Part shown: positions 1 through 13,144 of the stretch, piece by piece | Layout of the letters: each line of letters starts with the position of its first letter | How positions within the stretch are numbered: the stretch's first letter is position 1 | Translations under genes and position numbers: made by a program | Notes under the pieces: generated by a model | Database searches by the model: none | What the model saw: the letters and a program-made list of their open reading frames with translations, nothing else | What the model was told of the DNA's origin: nothing | From: Myxococcota bacterium | GTDB lineage: Bacteria > Myxococcota_A > Bradymonadia > UBA7976 > UBA1532 | Reading direction: 5' to 3' | NCBI GenBank assembly: GCA_036337435.1 | Contig: JAYZEG010000014.1 | Coordinates: 1-21,840, forward strand | Length of the DNA: 21,840 bases

Positions 1-203
1 GCACCACCGGCACCGCCTTCAGCGCCAGCACCACCGGCACCGCCCGCAGCACCAGCACCACCGGCGCCGCCCTCAGCACCAGCACCACCGGCGCCGCCCG
101 CAGCACCAGCGCCACCGGCACCGCCTTCAGCGCCAGCACCACCAGCACCGCCCTCAGCACCAGCACCACCGGCGCCGCCCTGAGCGCCAGCGCCACCGGC
201 ACC
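1..203. repeat. 27-bp coding tandem repeat (7 full units plus a partial), encoding GGAGGAGA(E/A/Q)
   Basis: Units of the form gcaccaccggcaccgccttcagcgcca start at 1, 28, 55, 82, 109, 136 and 163, with a partial unit at 190-203. Variation is mostly synonymous. Confidence 0.9.
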
Positions 204-281
204 ACGGCTAGATGTTTCGTCATTGCCGCAGCCGAATAGGGCTAAAGCGAATAAGATTGTAAGTGTATTGAATTTTGACAC
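1..281 (-). CDS. Lipoprotein with Gly/Ala-rich repeat linker (N-terminal part; runs off the left edge)
   Basis: Manual translation from GTG at 281 gives MSKFNTLTILFALALFGCGNDETSSRGAGGAGAQGGAGGAGAEGG... It has a signal peptide with lipobox LFG-C and a GAGGGG Shine-Dalgarno at 287-292. Absent from the ORF track because no stop lies in the window. Confidence 0.8.
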   Translation of the reverse strand, partial: MSKFNTLTILFALALFGCGNDETSSRGAGGAGAQGGAGGAGAEGGAGGAGAEGGAGGAGAAGGAGGAGAEGGAGGAGAAGGAGGAGAEGGAGG

Positions 282-1828: not shown

Positions 1829-2467
1829 CTAAGTCACACAGGCATAGCCAAACACAAGTTGAGAGCCAAAATAAAGGGGAATACCCCAAAGCTTGTTTGC
1901 AAAACCCGCCGCCTTGAAACGGCCGCGTGCGACCGAGATATCAGAGAGCCAGAACATCATTGCAGCCACGGGTAAAATTGAACTCTTCGTTCCAAAAGCC
2001 AAAGTGACCATCGCTGTAATGACAAGAACATAAGCGGCCACGGCACTCTTGAGTTTGGGTGGTACATCTGGGCGCAGCCACTTGAATATAAGCCAAGCAA
2101 CGAGGGAGAATCCCAGCAATGCGACCCCCGCATGAGTCCAATTTATGCCGTAGACGAGACAGGCTCCAGCGTAGGCTAGGTGACCTAGGAGAAATGAGCC
2201 CAAGCCCATGGCAAAGTAGGGGCCGACCTTTCTTGGGATCAGAAACAGATCACCGATTACGGAAAAAACGAGCCCCACAAGAATCCACTGACCGAACGCC
2301 GTTTGCCATGCGCCAACTGCTAAAGCAGCCAAAACAAAGGCGATGGCGGCCACGGGTTTGAATAGCCAGCGGAGAGGTTGGTTGTCGGTCTTCTCCGCCC
2401 AGAGCAAGCCTATCACCGCTGCAGCTGTGATGGCCGACAAGCCAATAAACTGTTCTTGCATCCCCAT
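1829..2467 (-). CDS. YhhN/TMEM86-family lysoplasmalogenase-like integral membrane protein
   Basis: Multiple TM helices with family motifs FKP, GLVFSVIGDLFL, GLGSFLLGHLAY, FWLSDISVA and LYFGSQL. ATG at 2467 overlaps the upstream TGA (TGATG). Confidence 0.85.
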   Translation of the reverse strand: MGMQEQFIGLSAITAAAVIGLLWAEKTDNQPLRWLFKPVAAIAFVLAALAVGAWQTAFGQWILVGLVFSVIGDLFLIPRKVGPYFAMGLGSFLLGHLAYAGACLVYGINWTHAGVALLGFSLVAWLIFKWLRPDVPPKLKSAVAAYVLVITAMVTLAFGTKSSILPVAAMMFWLSDISVARGRFKAAGFANKLWGIPLYFGSQLVFGYACVT

Positions 2468-4161
2468 CAATCCCCTCTGTGCTTCGGGTCGTGGAGCACT
2501 ATGACCTGCTTTTTTGTCCCTCTTTTGAGACGCACACTCAACCAACTTGTGGAGGGATCGCTGCGTCCTGCCAAGTGCCGAATGAGTTGCCCACGATTGA
2601 ATGCAGGTGTATCTCCGGGTGGCTGATCAAATGCACGCTCAACAGCCTGAGGGTCGGTGAGTCGGACCACCAAGTTATTGTCAAGAAGTAAAGCCGCATA
2701 GCCCGATCCCAGCTCATGATATTTTAAGTCGATTTTCTTCTTTGAGCCCAGTGTCAGGTCATCACCAGCCTCGTTAAGCAAGTGCAATTTTGTCACCCAG
2801 TCGAGTTGTCCAATCAGCATTTCCGGGCGATGGATGAGTGCGTCGAGGGTGTCACTCCATCGTGTGATGATCTCGTTTGCTTCAAGTCGTACGACGGCAG
2901 ATTCGCGCACGAAGGCCTTCGCCCTGTCTAAGTACCACCGTTGCAAGTCAAGCCCGGTCCAATAATCGCCATTTTTCATGTAGACGGCGATCCTTAATTC
3001 AGGGTCTGCGTTAATCGCATGGAGCGCATCCAGGCAATTGGAGACCTGGGGAGCATCGTCGATGAAACCCGCTTCGATCATATCAATGACCAGTAGGGTT
3101 GACCCCAATTTTAGAAATTCGGCGACCTCCAAGCGGTTAGCATCGCTCAGGCCGAGCTGGAGTCGGATCGTGGGCTTGAACAGCAGGCTAATCAGTTCAA
3201 ATTCGCCAAGTAAGGGCAATATTACACATTTGAGTATGTGCCCGTGATCGAAAATACTGTGACCAGACATGGTGAAAGGAGCCCGGTCTATTCGAGAAAT
3301 CCCGAGAGCCTTCTCACTCAGTTGAAATGAATAGTAACTGTCCAGCGTGCCGGTTCCGGACAGAATTGCACGGCTGCTTAGAAAACCCGACATCAGGTGC
3401 CGAAAACGCCGGAATACGATGTGTTTGAGTGCAAAGTGAAGCGGCAGTTGCGCCGGCGCGAGAATGATGGATTGCGCAGCAAAGTCGAGCCGCGCCATCA
3501 AGACTCGGCCGGGATGAGGCTGACGGGGGTCTTCATCACCTGCCGGAGTCCCACCCTGGGTGTTTCGTCCACTCAGGCGCAGCACGGCTTCACCCAAATA
3601 TAGACCCAGTGAGACCACCAGCGTAGGGATCAAAACTGCTAACATCAACAGAGCAGCGATAGGTAACCAGGCAACGCAGACCACTGCGATCGCTCGGAAA
3701 GCCAATCCTTTGATGCCTGCTGGTACTTTCACTTCGTAATTTTCCTGCGGTCCGTAGATCTGTCCATCCACGTCTCGCGCATTGCGTAGCAACGTGAGCT
3801 CGCCCGAGTAACCGAAACGACATAAGTGATCTTCGGCCAGCGGGATTGCCCGCAAAAGAAGGTCTTCTTGCGCCCTTTGGTAGACCAACAACTGACTCGG
3901 CCCTCGACATTCTGGCGTCGCACACTCCACTAGACCTGCTGCTGGATGCGTCGGCTTGTGCTCATAAGAAACACTGCCGCCGTTGGCACAGAACATGCGA
4001 TGCTGGCCATCTTTTCGTTTGGCTGGAATTGTGGACGTGCAGACGCTGATGGCGTCGGCCAAGGCAAGGTAGATCTCTTCATTGTCCGGTCGTGGACAAC
4101 CCAGTGTCGGTCGAAAACGAATCGCATACTCATTTTCGAGGCCTGTCAGGCGAGACAGCAC
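2467..4161 (-). CDS. Divergent PafA/Dop-family (Pup-protein ligase-like) protein with an internal hydrophobic insert
   Basis: Motifs colinear with PafA: GLENEY (GhExE), NGG, ECATPEC, RNxxDxxGxxYGxQENY, FLSSRAILSGTG, FQLSEKA, RLQLGLSDAN, LKLGSTLLVIDMIE, LDWVTK, IDLKYHELG, PPGDTPAFNRG and a terminal W...DP. Lies 6 nt downstream of a GGE-ending peptide gene. Confidence 0.9.
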   Translation of the reverse strand: MLSRLTGLENEYAIRFRPTLGCPRPDNEEIYLALADAISVCTSTIPAKRKDGQHRMFCANGGSVSYEHKPTHPAAGLVECATPECRGPSQLLVYQRAQEDLLLRAIPLAEDHLCRFGYSGELTLLRNARDVDGQIYGPQENYEVKVPAGIKGLAFRAIAVVCVAWLPIAALLMLAVLIPTLVVSLGLYLGEAVLRLSGRNTQGGTPAGDEDPRQPHPGRVLMARLDFAAQSIILAPAQLPLHFALKHIVFRRFRHLMSGFLSSRAILSGTGTLDSYYSFQLSEKALGISRIDRAPFTMSGHSIFDHGHILKCVILPLLGEFELISLLFKPTIRLQLGLSDANRLEVAEFLKLGSTLLVIDMIEAGFIDDAPQVSNCLDALHAINADPELRIAVYMKNGDYWTGLDLQRWYLDRAKAFVRESAVVRLEANEIITRWSDTLDALIHRPEMLIGQLDWVTKLHLLNEAGDDLTLGSKKKIDLKYHELGSGYAALLLDNNLVVRLTDPQAVERAFDQPPGDTPAFNRGQLIRHLAGRSDPSTSWLSVRLKRGTKKQVIVLHDPKHRGD

Positions 4162-4167
4162 AGGGGC

Positions 4168-4329
4168 TTATTCGCCTCCAGCCGGAACGCGAGTCTCCTG
4201 GATATACTCGTTGGCTTTGTCCTTGGCATCTTCTCGAATTTGCCGGAGGACCATTTGTAGTCGTGTGTCTGCTGTGCCGGACTCAGGCGTCTCAGGTGTC
4301 TCAGGTGTCTGTTTTTTTGAATCTTGCAT
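4168..4329 (-). CDS. Pup/UBact-like small protein modifier (53 aa, C-terminal GGE)
   Basis: Manual translation: MQDSKKQTPETPETPESGTADTRLQMVLRQIREDAKDKANEYIQETRVPAGGE*. GAGGAAGG Shine-Dalgarno at 4335-4342. Disordered N-terminus, central helix, GGE end, directly upstream of the PafA-like gene. Not listed in the ORF track, which shows nothing under 60 aa. Confidence 0.85.
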   Translation of the reverse strand: MQDSKKQTPETPETPESGTADTRLQMVLRQIREDAKDKANEYIQETRVPAGGE

Positions 4330-4413
4330 GGGAACCTTCCTCGACCTCAGTTATGGTGCACCGTATCCGATTTTACCTGCGCTATCGAGTCTGAAAATAG
4401 AAAGAGAGGGTGT

Positions 4414-5154
4414 ATGCCGGTCGCTTTTATTGCGGGTGCCACAGGGTTGACGGGCCGTTCGGTTGTTCAGTTTCTACGGGATGCAAAGGTCGACGTCGTC
4501 GCACACATTCGTCCCGATTCCAAACGGCTTGACGAATGGACAGATCGTTTTGAAGCACTGGGTGCAACCGTATCGACTGCCGAGTGGACGGTCGACGCAA
4601 TGTCAGCGGCATTTCAAACCATAAAACCCGATATGGTGTTCGCCTTGCTGGGGACGACAAAGAAGCGGAGCCGCGCAGGTGATGGAGATTATGATTCAGT
4701 GGACTATGCCCTCACGGCGCTGCTTATCGAGTCGGCTGAGATGGCCGCTGCATCATCACGGTTTATCTACCTCTCGGCCGTTGGAGTGACCCCAACAACC
4801 CGCAATAGATATTTGTCAGCAAGAGCGAAGGTTGAAGCCCGTTTGGCTCAATCGCCCCTCGCACACTGTATCGCAAGACCCTCCTTCATCTTGGGCCAAC
4901 GTGATGATAAGCGGCCACTTGAGGCATTGGGCGCGCCTTTGCTCGACGGTCTACTCGCAACAATGGGTCTTCTCGGAGGTAGACGTTGGTCCGACCAATA
5001 TCGCTCAATGCTGGGGACAGACTTAGCAATGGCCTTGACTGAGGCTGCGCTCGCCGGCCTAGACGGGATCTTGGATGTCCCTCGGATCATCGCTGCCAAG
5101 GGTCGATATCAAGACCGAATAGCGAACTGGGACAATGAATCCGAGACGAACTAG
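4414..5154 (+). CDS. Atypical SDR / NAD(P)-binding Rossmann protein (YraR/TIP30-like)
   Basis: Start MPVAFIAGATGLTG at ATG 4414 after GAGAGGG. Motifs LGTT, VDY, YLSAVG, YxxxR/K and RPSFILG. Confidence 0.85.
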   Translation: MPVAFIAGATGLTGRSVVQFLRDAKVDVVAHIRPDSKRLDEWTDRFEALGATVSTAEWTVDAMSAAFQTIKPDMVFALLGTTKKRSRAGDGDYDSVDYALTALLIESAEMAAASSRFIYLSAVGVTPTTRNRYLSARAKVEARLAQSPLAHCIARPSFILGQRDDKRPLEALGAPLLDGLLATMGLLGGRRWSDQYRSMLGTDLAMALTEAALAGLDGILDVPRIIAAKGRYQDRIANWDNESETN

Positions 5155-6756
5155 GCTATCGAGCTCCCCTGGACTTGCATCTATTTGCGCGAAGAGACAG
5201 GGCGATGTCTCGAGGCGTTCCAAAGCAGTGAAGGCTGCGTCAGTCAGCTCGAGTATGTCGAGCTCCCCATCACTCGCCCGTTTGACCACTAGGTTATGAC
5301 TCTTGAGGGGCAGTTCAGCCGGTAAGTGCTCGACGGACGCGATAATTTTAGGGATGTCGAAATCAAAATGAAGACGCTCAACACCAGGGGCAATGGTCCA
5401 TTGTGTCTTTCCACATGGGTTATCTGTGTACAGCGCGTCGTGCACAATCGATGTGCTGCTTGGATGGATGAATGCGGTCTCATAGCGAGCGACCTCAGCG
5501 GTAGGCCCTGGGGCCTCTTCGTTAAGAAATTCAGCAAAACGGCGGGCTAAGGGGACTCGGCTCGGGACATCCTGTTCAGCAAACGCAACCACAACAGGAG
5601 GCAAGGCATCGCCCAGTATCGCTGTCGTATTTGGAAGCGTTTCTTCCAATCCATCGGTAATTTGTTCGATGGAACCGCCCAATCGGTTCAAAATTGAATA
5701 GCCAAGGGAGAAAACGTCATCGTAAGCGGGGAGGTACCACTCGTCGCAGAGCGCGCTGTAGGTTATGGAACTATACCTGAGTGCCTCGTCCGAACTGTCC
5801 GCCAGGCGTCTGATTATTTTTTCAAGTTCCTTGCGACACTCGCCATCACACTCCATGGCGATCACCAATAAGCGCCACGCTACATCTTGGCAGATCCAGG
5901 TCGAACGGTCACCGATCAGAGGGCGGGCTTCACCACGGCCGGTCATTGCATTCATGATTTCTATGACCCGTGCTTCTTGGGCATCTAAATCTCTAAAAGC
6001 CCCTTGGTCTGGTCCTAAGAACAAATGTCGAAACCATTGGAATTCGTCCGATTCTAACCGAAGTCGATTGGCGGCAGTCCAGGTCAGTGCATCATTGTTG
6101 AGGTCGATGGTTGCGTATCGATGCCCTGTTGGAATACCGGTCCGACGTGTGCGTGCGATGGCGGCAAGCTCGCGATCGACAAATGCGAGGCCATCTTCGA
6201 GAAATTTCGTATCCTTTTTTACAATTGGCCCGCCAGACGCAGCCTGTTCACACGCAGGACAACGCAGACCGAAGAGGTCGCCGAGGCCGGCATGTTGCTC
6301 GCATCGGCGGAGATCGATCTCATCAAAGAAATACCATAGGGCTACGGGAAGCAGTTCCGACAAGCGCGCTGACAATGAATGGAACAAAGGCGATGCGTTG
6401 GGCCTCCAGGCGAAGCCGATGAGCGCATGGCATAATTCATGAGCGGTCCATTTCGGATCATGGCTTGGATGAAAACTGCCGATGGGATTATCGTATCTGA
6501 AATGTCGATACTTATGTTCGACTAAGTGGCCTGCTTTCCAATAAGGCTGAGCAGAAAATCCGGGTTGATTTGGAGGACACCATGCTTCGGGCAGAGGCAT
6601 ATGATGCCGGTATTCGAAATGGCTGAGGAACAACCCACTTGCTTGAGCAAGGTCTCCGATCACGTGCGCTGCTGATGAACGAGTCAACTCGTGGGCTGGG
6701 GCACCAATATTTGAGAAAGCGGTCATAGGCTGTTTATCTGACCATTGACAGCTCAT
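5059..6756 (-). CDS. Hypothetical protein with HEXXH metal site, CxxH/CxxC insert and DUF2063/HvfC-like C-terminal region
   Basis: 565-aa ORF. HELCH at aa 106-110 with a downstream Glu (LSELL), and C152/H155/C166/C169. The C-terminal segment LEETLPNTTAILG...RFAEFL...AEVARYETA resembles DUF2063. The start may be 6726. Confidence 0.7.
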   Translation of the reverse strand: MSCQWSDKQPMTAFSNIGAPAHELTRSSAAHVIGDLAQASGLFLSHFEYRHHMPLPEAWCPPNQPGFSAQPYWKAGHLVEHKYRHFRYDNPIGSFHPSHDPKWTAHELCHALIGFAWRPNASPLFHSLSARLSELLPVALWYFFDEIDLRRCEQHAGLGDLFGLRCPACEQAASGGPIVKKDTKFLEDGLAFVDRELAAIARTRRTGIPTGHRYATIDLNNDALTWTAANRLRLESDEFQWFRHLFLGPDQGAFRDLDAQEARVIEIMNAMTGRGEARPLIGDRSTWICQDVAWRLLVIAMECDGECRKELEKIIRRLADSSDEALRYSSITYSALCDEWYLPAYDDVFSLGYSILNRLGGSIEQITDGLEETLPNTTAILGDALPPVVVAFAEQDVPSRVPLARRFAEFLNEEAPGPTAEVARYETAFIHPSSTSIVHDALYTDNPCGKTQWTIAPGVERLHFDFDIPKIIASVEHLPAELPLKSHNLVVKRASDGELDILELTDAAFTALERLETSPCLFAQIDASPGELDSLVRLGFIVPVRYSVLISTLGSDDPRDIQDPV

Positions 6757-12279: not shown

Positions 12280-12327
12280 AAGCAGTATATTGCATGTTTA
12301 ATTGTTTTAGTGTGAAATATAGTGCAT
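12280..12327. promoter_or_regulatory. Two BoxR/BzdR-type operator palindromes in the boxC/boxR divergent region
   Basis: AAGCAGTATATTGCAT (12280-12295) and GTGAAATATAGTGCAT (12312-12327) both fit an ATGCAnTATAnTGCAT palindrome. TGCA boxes are the known BzdR/BoxR recognition element. Confidence 0.7.
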
Positions 12328-13144
12328 GAAAAGCGTCAAGGAAATCGTTGGAGAGCGTGTCCGGAATCGCCGCAAAGCGCAGTCATTGACCGTGGCAAAG
12401 CTGGCCGAACGCAGTGGATTGAGTGCGCGTTACATCCTCAGTGCGGAGAAAGGCCAGGCGAATTTATCCCTTGAAAAACTTGAACAACTCTGTGGAGCAC
12501 TCGACCTGTCTTTGAGTGTGGTTGTCTCCCGCGAAACCCGTGGAGAAATAGACGGACTCTTGTCTGCTCGCAGTGCAGATGAATTGGCCGAGATCGCTGA
12601 TTGGATTCGGGACAGATATGCCCGTGCGTCGAAGTCACTCGTGGCGTTATTGGGAGTGCGAGGTGCCGGTAAAACAGCGGTCGGCAAAGGCTTGGCGAGT
12701 CGCCTGGGTTTGCCCTTTGAAGAACTCGACAAGCGCATTGAGGAAATGGCCGAGCTTTCATTGGCTGAAATATTTGCGCTCCATGGCGAGCAATTTTATC
12801 GCAGGCTCGAGCATTCCGCACTGAACAATTTGGTTGATGACGGTCGCAAGCGAGTCTTGGCGACGGGAGGGGGATTGGTCACCGACCCTCAAAACTTTGC
12901 AAGACTCAAAAACACCGCGGTCACCATTTGGTTGAAAGCGACCGCTGAAGATCATTGGAGCAGAGTGATCGACCAAGGCGACAATCGACCAATGCGAGAC
13001 CACCCACAAGCCATGGCCCAGTTACGGCAGCTCATGGAGACCCGAGAGCCGCTCTACGGGCAAGCCGACTACACCGTGCTCACAACGGGTCGACCCATCC
13101 ATGAAATCGTCGACGAAATCGTACAAATTTTTGGAGAATGCTGA
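12326..13144 (+). CDS. boxR: BoxR/BzdR-family regulator (XRE HTH plus shikimate-kinase-like benzoyl-CoA sensor)
   Basis: N-terminal HTH (LAERSGLSARYILSAEKGQANLSL), P-loop GVRGAGKT, ATGGG and QGDNRPM. Divergent from boxCB. Confidence 0.9.
   Translation: MKSVKEIVGERVRNRRKAQSLTVAKLAERSGLSARYILSAEKGQANLSLEKLEQLCGALDLSLSVVVSRETRGEIDGLLSARSADELAEIADWIRDRYARASKSLVALLGVRGAGKTAVGKGLASRLGLPFEELDKRIEEMAELSLAEIFALHGEQFYRRLEHSALNNLVDDGRKRVLATGGGLVTDPQNFARLKNTAVTIWLKATAEDHWSRVIDQGDNRPMRDHPQAMAQLRQLMETREPLYGQADYTVLTTGRPIHEIVDEIVQIFGEC

Follow-up and report, generated by a model that had tools for sequence, protein, structure and literature searches.

A Pup-like peptide and a predicted membrane-held Pup_ligase-family enzyme as a candidate proteasome-independent tagging module in a Myxococcota bacterium

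Introduction

To our knowledge, no ubiquitin-like tagging pathway native to bacteria has been well studied except pupylation, and nearly all that is understood of it concerns its role as a proteasome degron in Actinobacteria. The canonical system of Actinobacteria and Nitrospirae comprises the modifier Pup, the enzymes PafA and Dop, Mpa/ARC and the PrcAB proteasome. UBact, which Lehmann et al. reportedly described in 2017, is said to be a Pup-like tag of Gram-negative bacteria, with loci that hold Mpa, Dop, PrcB, PrcA and PafA. A membrane-anchored pair of Pup and Pup ligase was predicted in silico by Iyer, Burroughs and Aravind (Biol Direct 3:45, 2008; PMC2588565) in Plesiocystis pacifica and Rhodopirellula baltica, where it is described as unlinked to proteasome genes; a transmembrane insertion with four segments was counted in the ligase. 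In Corynebacterium glutamicum, pupylation operates without a 20S proteasome and serves ferritin disassembly (PMC8223512). Here we describe a pair of minus-strand genes, encoding a 53-residue Pup-like peptide and a Pup_ligase-family enzyme, in a 21.8-kb stretch of DNA (positions 1 to 21,840 of contig JAYZEG010000014.1; hereafter the window) from a Myxococcota bacterium, the assembly of which (GCA_036337435.1) comprises 4.38 Mb in 95 contigs and is 87% complete.

An earlier note on this DNA, made from the sequence alone, had proposed a ligation-ready Pup-like modifier next to a PafA/Dop-family ligase, with no proteasome, ARC or Dop, and this proposal was supported by every point that could be tested. 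Its remark that proteasome-less pairs had been predicted in deltaproteobacteria and planctomycetes was correct, the source being the 2008 paper (PMC2588565); by the same token the novelty that it implied falls away, as that paper had already put the same pair in print. Overall, we consider it probable that the two genes constitute a protein-tagging module, in which a Pup-like modifier is attached by a membrane-held ligase as a proteasome-independent mark.

Results and discussion

The modifier gene (4168–4329, minus strand) encodes 53 amino acids, with a variable N-terminal half that carries a threefold TPE repeat and a conserved C-terminal half that reads DAxxxxxxYIxETxVPAGGE. The peptide ends in ...ANEYIQETRVPAGGE, i.e. 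in VPAGGE, directly before a TAA stop codon. Direct reading of the sequence confirmed the strong Shine-Dalgarno site that had been pointed out ahead of it (GAGGAAGG, 4335–4342, minus strand, 5 nt from the ATG), and most of the homologous peptides are also preceded by GGAGG- or GAGG-type sites. A spacer of 6 nt (GCCCCT) separates the TAA from the GTG start codon, at 4161, of the ligase gene (2467–4161, minus strand; 564 amino acids). The arrangement first described, a GGE-ending open reading frame (ORF) for 53 amino acids placed 6 nt upstream of a PafA/Dop-family gene, was therefore found to be correct when coordinates (4329..4168) and sequence were re-read. The peptide gene is single-copy in its own genome.

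Relatives of the ligase were collected from two sources. A scan of species-representative genomes returned seven loci at 36–50% identity, in records labelled Myxococcales, Pirellulales (two), Acidobacteriota, 'Rickettsiales', 'Proteobacteria' and unclassified bacterium, all seven with a VPxGGE-ending ORF. Among 301 sampled genomes of the window's GTDB phylum, eight (including G000) contained a full-length ligase relative, again all with a GGE-ending ORF. Two loci of the second set duplicate loci of the first, which leaves 12 distinct relatives in addition to the window. The earlier note had suggested a search for GG[EQ]-ending ORFs upstream of orthologues; a small ORF ending in VPxGGE lies directly upstream of the ligase gene at all 13 loci, and the pairing is therefore not due to chance. 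The 13 peptides are 50–80 amino acids long and variable in their N-terminal halves. Four residues, P49, G51, G52 and E53, do not vary at all, and conservation reaches at least 90% at D34 and V48.

A profile of these 13 peptides, run against 1.84 billion cluster representatives, matched 660 of them at E ≤ 0.001, of which 11 reached E ≤ 1e-10. The best 150 of the 660 are 45–78 amino acids long, were matched to their final residue and share the motif PxxYLx[ED]TxVPxGGE; every one of the 150 ends in GGE and none in GGQ, so that a deamidase would not be needed. Of 8000 scored candidates, at least 318 are homologues of the ligase at E ≤ 1e-5. For the most part, the top 120 have lengths of 545–600 amino acids and are 37–78% identical to it, and the best homologues are named 'proteasome accessory factor PafA2 family protein' by NCBI, their sources being Bradymonadia, Myxococcota, Polyangiaceae, Pseudenhygromyxa and Chondromyces crocatus.

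Variation in the peptide was also seen in DNA contigs from two environmental runs, which are without 9 nt at 4289 (window 4282–4310), an in-frame loss of one TPE unit. The same contigs show two non-synonymous differences, at 4224 and 4271, in the variable half of the peptide (codons read by eye).

The ligase matches the Pfam family Pup_ligase (PF03136) with an E value of 1.5e-63 and 215.8 bits (cut-off 25) in the kind of profile search that the earlier note had proposed; the match is split into two stretches because the domain is interrupted. Its scores against the NCBIfam models are 150.5 bits for PafA (TIGR03686, equivalog cut-off 551.3) and 134.2 bits for Dop (TIGR03688, equivalog cut-off 492.3). 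An alignment of 56 transmembrane-type (TM-type) sequences revealed that the GhExE motif is kept, in this enzyme as G7-L-E9-N-E11, with E9 and E11 at least 90% conserved. Residues E67, Q139, E140, R264, R333, Q335 and N342 are invariant in the 56 sequences, in which the motifs NxRD, QENY, FLxSR and RLQ are invariant or nearly so. Equivalents are thus kept for the PafA/Dop motifs KNNTD (N127, R129 and D130), HENY (Q139-E140-N141-Y), FLVTRQ (R264) and RLHVxxGDxN (R333, Q335 and N342).

An AlphaFold2 model of the ligase, computed from the 56-sequence alignment, has a mean predicted local distance difference test score (pLDDT) of 91.7 and a predicted template modelling score of 0.91. Present in the model are the glutamine-synthetase-like beta-sheet cradle and the C-terminal domain specific to pupylation enzymes. 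In a Foldseek search of the PDB, ranks 1 to 10 were all Dop or PafA (E 1.5e-24 to 1.3e-17, target-normalised template modelling score 0.71–0.86), and were followed by GCS2/YbdK and glutathione synthetases.

The modelled complex of ligase, peptide, ATP and Mg scored 0.92 in all three runs, versus 0.00 for the best of three controls, a mark that is attained by 116 of 157 solved complexes and by 2 of 215 mismatched pairs. The runs share at least 91% of their contacts, and the pLDDT of the partner is at least 73. Peptide residues 20–53 contact residues 11–17, 67–77 and 125–139 of the ligase cradle, residues 450–497 of its C-terminal domain, and also residues 213 and 298–305; the modelled peptide occupies the groove of the ligase and its terminal Glu is predicted to lie in the active site. 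Structure prediction of the complex, another of the checks put forward at the outset, is thus passed, although complexes of PafA-Pup and Dop-Pup have been solved (4BJR, 7OXY), and the pass may therefore reflect likeness to these rather than prove that this copy binds.

In order to place the enzyme within its family, a tree of 39 rows was inferred with IQ-TREE (LG+C20+F+G4, branch support by Shimodaira-Hasegawa-like approximate likelihood ratio test, SH-aLRT; midpoint root for drawing only). The rows comprised 12 peptide-linked TM-type ligases, nine 'third-clade' paralogues, 12 Dop and 6 PafA; the latter two were taken from genomes of the window's GTDB phylum on the basis of NCBIfam labels (Dop 564–602 bits, PafA 548–556 bits). 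The partial sequence L007, the duplicates L008 and L012 and all P-numbered proteins were left out. Each of the four groups falls on one side of a branch, with support of 86, 99, 99 and 99, and PafA and Dop are joined to the exclusion of the TM-type clade with an SH-aLRT of 100 and a branch length of 1.75. Within these four groups of rows, the tree that had been called for thus sets the enzyme outside the PafA/Dop pair. It is therefore neither PafA nor Dop, but a member of a lineage outside their duplication, in agreement with the use of a single-copy planctomycete homologue as the outgroup by Hecht et al. 2020 (PMC7947786). The label 'PafA-like' given to it in the earlier note accordingly holds for family membership and fails for orthology to either PafA or Dop, in view of both the equivalog scores and the tree.

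This position lends some weight to an alternative in which the single enzyme would be bifunctional, or mainly a depupylase-like hydrolase, as has been proposed for a promiscuous PafA/Dop ancestor, and tagging would be made reversible by this one protein. Hecht et al. (PMC7947786) make the case for an ancestral ligase that also had a promiscuous, Dop-like activity, and the sequence matches of the enzyme in the PDB are slightly better to Dop (104 bits) than to PafA (80 bits). The NCBIfam scores, however, lean slightly to PafA, and the Dop-loop, which precedes strand beta-2 and is described as present in all Dop and in no PafA (Cui et al. 2021, PMC8599861), is absent from the ligase as it is from the PafA rows of the alignment, the Dop rows carrying a ...LWDYDQENP... 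insertion. Furthermore, a hydrolase alone would have no source of conjugates, as the genome contains one Pup_ligase gene only, and the uniform GGE ends make a deamidase unnecessary. We therefore regard a bifunctional or mainly hydrolytic enzyme as unlikely.

The third clade of the tree consists of Pup_ligase paralogues of 590–641 amino acids (L020–L026, L028 and L033; for example L050:6685–8487, genome G198), which have a hydrophobic insertion at the same site as the TM-type enzymes and Glu at the position of the catalytic Asp, read in four third-clade rows of the alignment. An upstream G[EQ]-ending ORF was found for none of the nine. All nine belong to genomes of families f29 and f34 in which a pair of canonical Dop/PafA-type matches likewise occurs; the two annotated genomes, G198 and G128, both have Dop, Pup and PafA, and G198 has Mpa as well. 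The enzymes of this clade may be membrane-anchored and use canonical Pup in trans.

The domain of the TM-type ligase is interrupted by an insertion of about 115 residues (aa ~146–263; 3373–3726, minus strand), delimited by hydropathy, AlphaFold2 and alignment. It follows the ...YGPQENYEV strand and is absent from canonical PafA and Dop. Residues ~150–196 are strongly hydrophobic, with a Kyte-Doolittle 19-residue maximum of 2.84, and across the 56 sequences this stretch has a mean above 2 and is nearly charge-free; residues 197–222 are polar and ~225–250 moderately hydrophobic. The model places helices at 149–164, 166–196, 217–249 (the moderately hydrophobic one) and 251–263; the polar loop between the second and third of these, at 197–216, has a pLDDT below 50 at 201–210. 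On hydropathy and model, the stretch ~150–196 is long enough for two transmembrane helices; with such a hairpin, the parts of the catalytic domain on either side of it would both be cytoplasmic. We infer the membrane topology on this basis; loop residue 213, which touches the peptide in the complex model, fits a cytoplasmic loop. The first description of the locus, accurate in what it recorded, had overlooked this insertion as well as the overlap of the ligase stop codon with the next gene.

That gene (1829–2467, minus strand) encodes a polytopic membrane protein of the YhhN family (PF07947, E 9.4e-32) with 4–5 hydrophobic segments; we take the family to include lysoplasmalogenases. Its ATG overlaps the ligase stop codon by one base (TGATG), and it is therefore probably co-translated with the ligase. 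The gene order recurs in G151, a genome of the same genus, in which an unknown protein of 541 aa is followed by a divergent NAD_binding_10 gene, the peptide, the ligase and YhhN, the last two overlapping at GTGA. Neither YhhN nor any real downstream membrane gene was found at the remaining 11 loci. Apparent ORFs on that side of the ligase in L044, L010 and L008 were considered and seem spurious, with Arg/Pro/Gly-rich translations and no hydrophobic segments. The neighbours shared with the closest relatives only are the NAD_binding_10 gene (L006 and G151) and the 541/565-aa unknown protein and YhhN (G151).

A membrane-held enzyme could also be taken to use a membrane amine as its acceptor, for instance the phosphatidylethanolamine head-group, so that the peptide would be lipidated in the manner of the eukaryotic Atg8-phosphatidylethanolamine conjugate. 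The catalytic domain would itself be embedded in the membrane through the insertion beside the beta-sheet cradle, the carboxylate-amine ligase superfamily makes use of small-molecule amines (GCS2/YbdK and glutathione synthetases being the next folds), the active site differs systematically from that of PafA (D to E, and H to Q twice), and in this genus there is the operon with YhhN. However, YhhN is linked at only 2 of the 13 loci, and protein lysines are the acceptors of PafA, the closest ligase to have been characterised. The anchoring would be explained equally well by membrane proteins, as was argued by Iyer et al. (PMC2588565). We thus hold a lipid acceptor to be improbable, and its fullest form, a bacterial counterpart of Atg8 lipidation in which the active-site changes and YhhN would be adaptations to a lipid, to be very doubtful. 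In a milder alternative, the tag would mark inner-membrane proteins that a membrane AAA protease such as FtsH then extracts.

The window and related genomes were considered with respect to the proteasome pathway. No proteasome, ARC or Dop gene is among the genes annotated in the window, as had been stated in the earlier note, and the whole-genome search that it had advised likewise gave no proteasome, Mpa or Dop in the 87%-complete assembly. Specifically, the sole Proteasome-family match of this genome is HslV, which adjoins HslU, and the best match to the Mpa model, with 138 bits versus a cut-off of 505, is an FtsH fragment. No match to Pfam Pup was better than E 0.36. The searches for Mpa and Dop covered this genome, and the Proteasome-family search covered 11 pair-carrying genomes, i.e. 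this one and ten others, in none of which a 20S subunit was found. Eight of the ten others gave one Proteasome-family match and two gave none; seven of the eight matches score as HslV with NCBIfam models, and the eighth (L061) is HslV-like by its translation. Six of the ten are listed as 93–100% complete, the same-genus genome G151 being listed as 100% complete.

The HslV-like gene just mentioned, from a Myxococcales metagenome-assembled genome (L061:1501–2019, genome G301), carries an in-frame TGA where HslV of the window's genome has Trp, which may be a sequencing error or a variant.

Of the 301 genomes sampled from the phylum, about 55 gave canonical-looking matches of the Dop/PafA type, mostly two that lie about 3.3 kb apart (L048, L049, L052, L029–L042). 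Three such loci were fully annotated and contain Mpa or proteasome genes, Dop, Pup and PafA. The canonical enzymes that were scanned score at or close to the equivalog cut-offs of the actinobacterial models, and the 12 canonical Pups extracted from the phylum are near-identical, with the ending ...EEFVKNYVQRGG[EQ]. We did not expect a canonical Pup-proteasome system to be this common outside Actinobacteria and Nitrospirae.

Both this frequency and the completeness of 87% could be invoked in favour of ordinary pupylation, the proteasome being encoded in the unassembled 13% of the genome. We nevertheless deem it highly improbable: the same operon occurs in G151, listed as 100% complete, where HslV is all that was found, none of the 11 pair-carrying genomes gave a 20S subunit, and both Pup and the enzymes are different ones in the genomes that carry canonical loci. 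Hardly credible, too, is that the small ORF is a leader peptide, a precursor of a ribosomally synthesised and post-translationally modified peptide (RiPP) or a device that couples translation to that of the ligase. In favour of such a role, the ORF lacks a Pfam match and its GGE codons (GGAGGCGAA) form a Shine-Dalgarno-like GGAGG 13 nt before the ligase GTG, but its protein sequence is conserved in two named phyla and 660 representatives, its motif is far longer than a Shine-Dalgarno site needs, and the complex model puts its terminal Glu in the active site.

We propose that the 53-residue modifier would be disordered until bound, and that its conserved C-terminal ~30 residues would dock in the groove of the ligase's C-terminal domain so as to bring Glu53 into the glutamine-synthetase-like active site. 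The hydrophobic helical hairpin within the catalytic domain would hold the enzyme at the cytoplasmic face of the inner membrane. Judging from the enzyme family and from Iyer et al. 2008 (PMC2588565), the gamma-carboxylate of Glu53 would be phosphorylated with ATP to the gamma-glutamyl-phosphate, from which the peptide would be passed to an amine. The acceptor would most likely be a lysine, through its epsilon-amino group, of proteins in the membrane or close to it. As no Dop, Mpa/ARC or 20S proteasome was found in the genome, the tag is presumably not a proteasome degron; more likely, it would serve at the membrane as a mark for regulation, localisation or quality control. The pair and YhhN would form one operon in this genus, with YhhN possibly a client or else a mere passenger. 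Ligase rather than hydrolase activity, the lysine acceptor and the fate of tagged targets are inferred, as is the topology, from what was observed, namely the gene pair with its conservation, fold and motifs, the hydrophobic insertion, the negative searches for proteasome machinery and the position in the tree.

Several observations weigh against this proposal. Homology of the peptide to Pup by sequence was considered and rejected: scans of the window ORFs gave it no Pfam or NCBIfam match, none of the 13 peptides matched Pfam Pup (PF05639) even at E ≤ 10, and hhalign of the peptide against 12 canonical Pups gave a probability of 0.7% (E 0.08). In the ligase, the catalytic Asp (YxD in PafA and Dop) is replaced by Glu (E67) in all 56 TM-type sequences, with the acidic character kept, and two conserved His residues are Gln throughout the family (Q139, HENY to QENY; Q335, RLH to RLQ); the chemistry or the use of metal may therefore differ. 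The alpha-loop region, which discriminates ligase from hydrolase in PafA and Dop, is here too divergent to be read from the alignment. The number of membrane passes is uncertain, with two strongly and one moderately hydrophobic helix in this enzyme versus the four segments counted by Iyer et al. 2008, and the assembly reaches a completeness of only 87%. Pfam scans of the flanks of seven and five related loci gave no shared gene beyond the pair, barring the closest relatives, and so pointed to no target. Lastly, experimental conjugation by any family member was not found in open-access papers and bioRxiv, in line with the earlier note, to which no biochemical characterisation was known.

In two metatranscriptome runs from one study, four contigs of 151 nt at a depth of 2 map to the locus, at 2165–2315 and 2361–2511 (YhhN and the ligase/YhhN junction) and at 2921–3071 and 3084–3234 (ligase), with none over the peptide gene. 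Since DNA may be present in such libraries, these contigs indicate neither expression nor silence.

The remaining genes of the window belong to ordinary metabolism and encode enoyl-CoA hydratases, an aldehyde dehydrogenase, an acyltransferase, a G3P dehydrogenase, a molybdopterin oxidoreductase, MiaE and the start of Lon. The 565-aa protein mentioned above (5059–6756, minus strand) matches no Pfam family and is kept beside the module in G151 (L043:5502–7127); it shows a weak, sub-threshold match to the HvfC RiPP-recognition family (NF050145, E 5.5e-6, 26 bits versus a cut-off of 142). An ORF at 3–281 (minus strand), which runs off the window start, has a lipoprotein-like signal (…LALFGCGN…) followed by a Gly/Ala-rich GGAGGAGA[EA]GG repeat, and the opposite strand reads as APPAPP repeats. 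A fusion of an HTH_3 DNA-binding domain with a shikimate-kinase domain is encoded at 12326–13144 (plus strand).

Conclusions

With its 660 peptide representatives and at least 318 homologues of the ligase, the module is widespread, and it occurs in Myxococcota, Planctomycetota and genomes that bear the labels of other phyla. The targets of a membrane-based tag that is free of proteasome, unfoldase and depupylase would reveal a role for Pup-like modifiers beyond that of a degradation signal, and since the enzyme branches outside the PafA/Dop split, they would also reveal the activity of the ancestral enzyme.

Compared with the canonical Pup-proteasome system, the enzyme fold, GhExE and the GGE end of the modifier are common to both, and the modelled placement of the peptide in groove and active site is as in the solved PafA-Pup and Dop-Pup complexes. 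In contrast to its two enzymes, there is a single one here, outside the PafA/Dop clade, membrane-inserted by prediction and with Glu for the catalytic Asp; none of Mpa, Dop and 20S was found in this genome, and the peptide is without profile-detectable homology to Pup. UBact shares with the present pair a Pup-like tag outside Actinobacteria and is set apart by its locus of Mpa, Dop, PrcB, PrcA and PafA, none of which was found in the window or its genome. Corynebacterium glutamicum (PMC8223512) likewise pupylates without a 20S proteasome, but is described as keeping soluble PafA, Dop and the ARC unfoldase, none of which was found here, where the ligase is predicted to be membrane-bound.

The closest counterpart is the pair of Iyer et al. 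2008 (PMC2588565). Common to both, as far as that description goes, are a small G[EQ]-ending gene (50–90 residues; here 53) beside a single Pup-ligase homologue, a transmembrane insertion after a core strand, the lack of linkage to proteasome genes, and a range over deltaproteobacteria/Myxococcota and planctomycetes. A linked membrane-protein gene is also described there; in the window a YhhN gene overlaps the ligase stop codon, an arrangement of this genus only. Judged by the description of the Plesiocystis and Rhodopirellula pair, nothing essential differs, and the pair in the window is a member of the family predicted by Iyer et al. The idea of the module has thus been in print since 2008, and what is new at this locus is the translationally coupled YhhN gene, seen in this genus alone (the window and G151).

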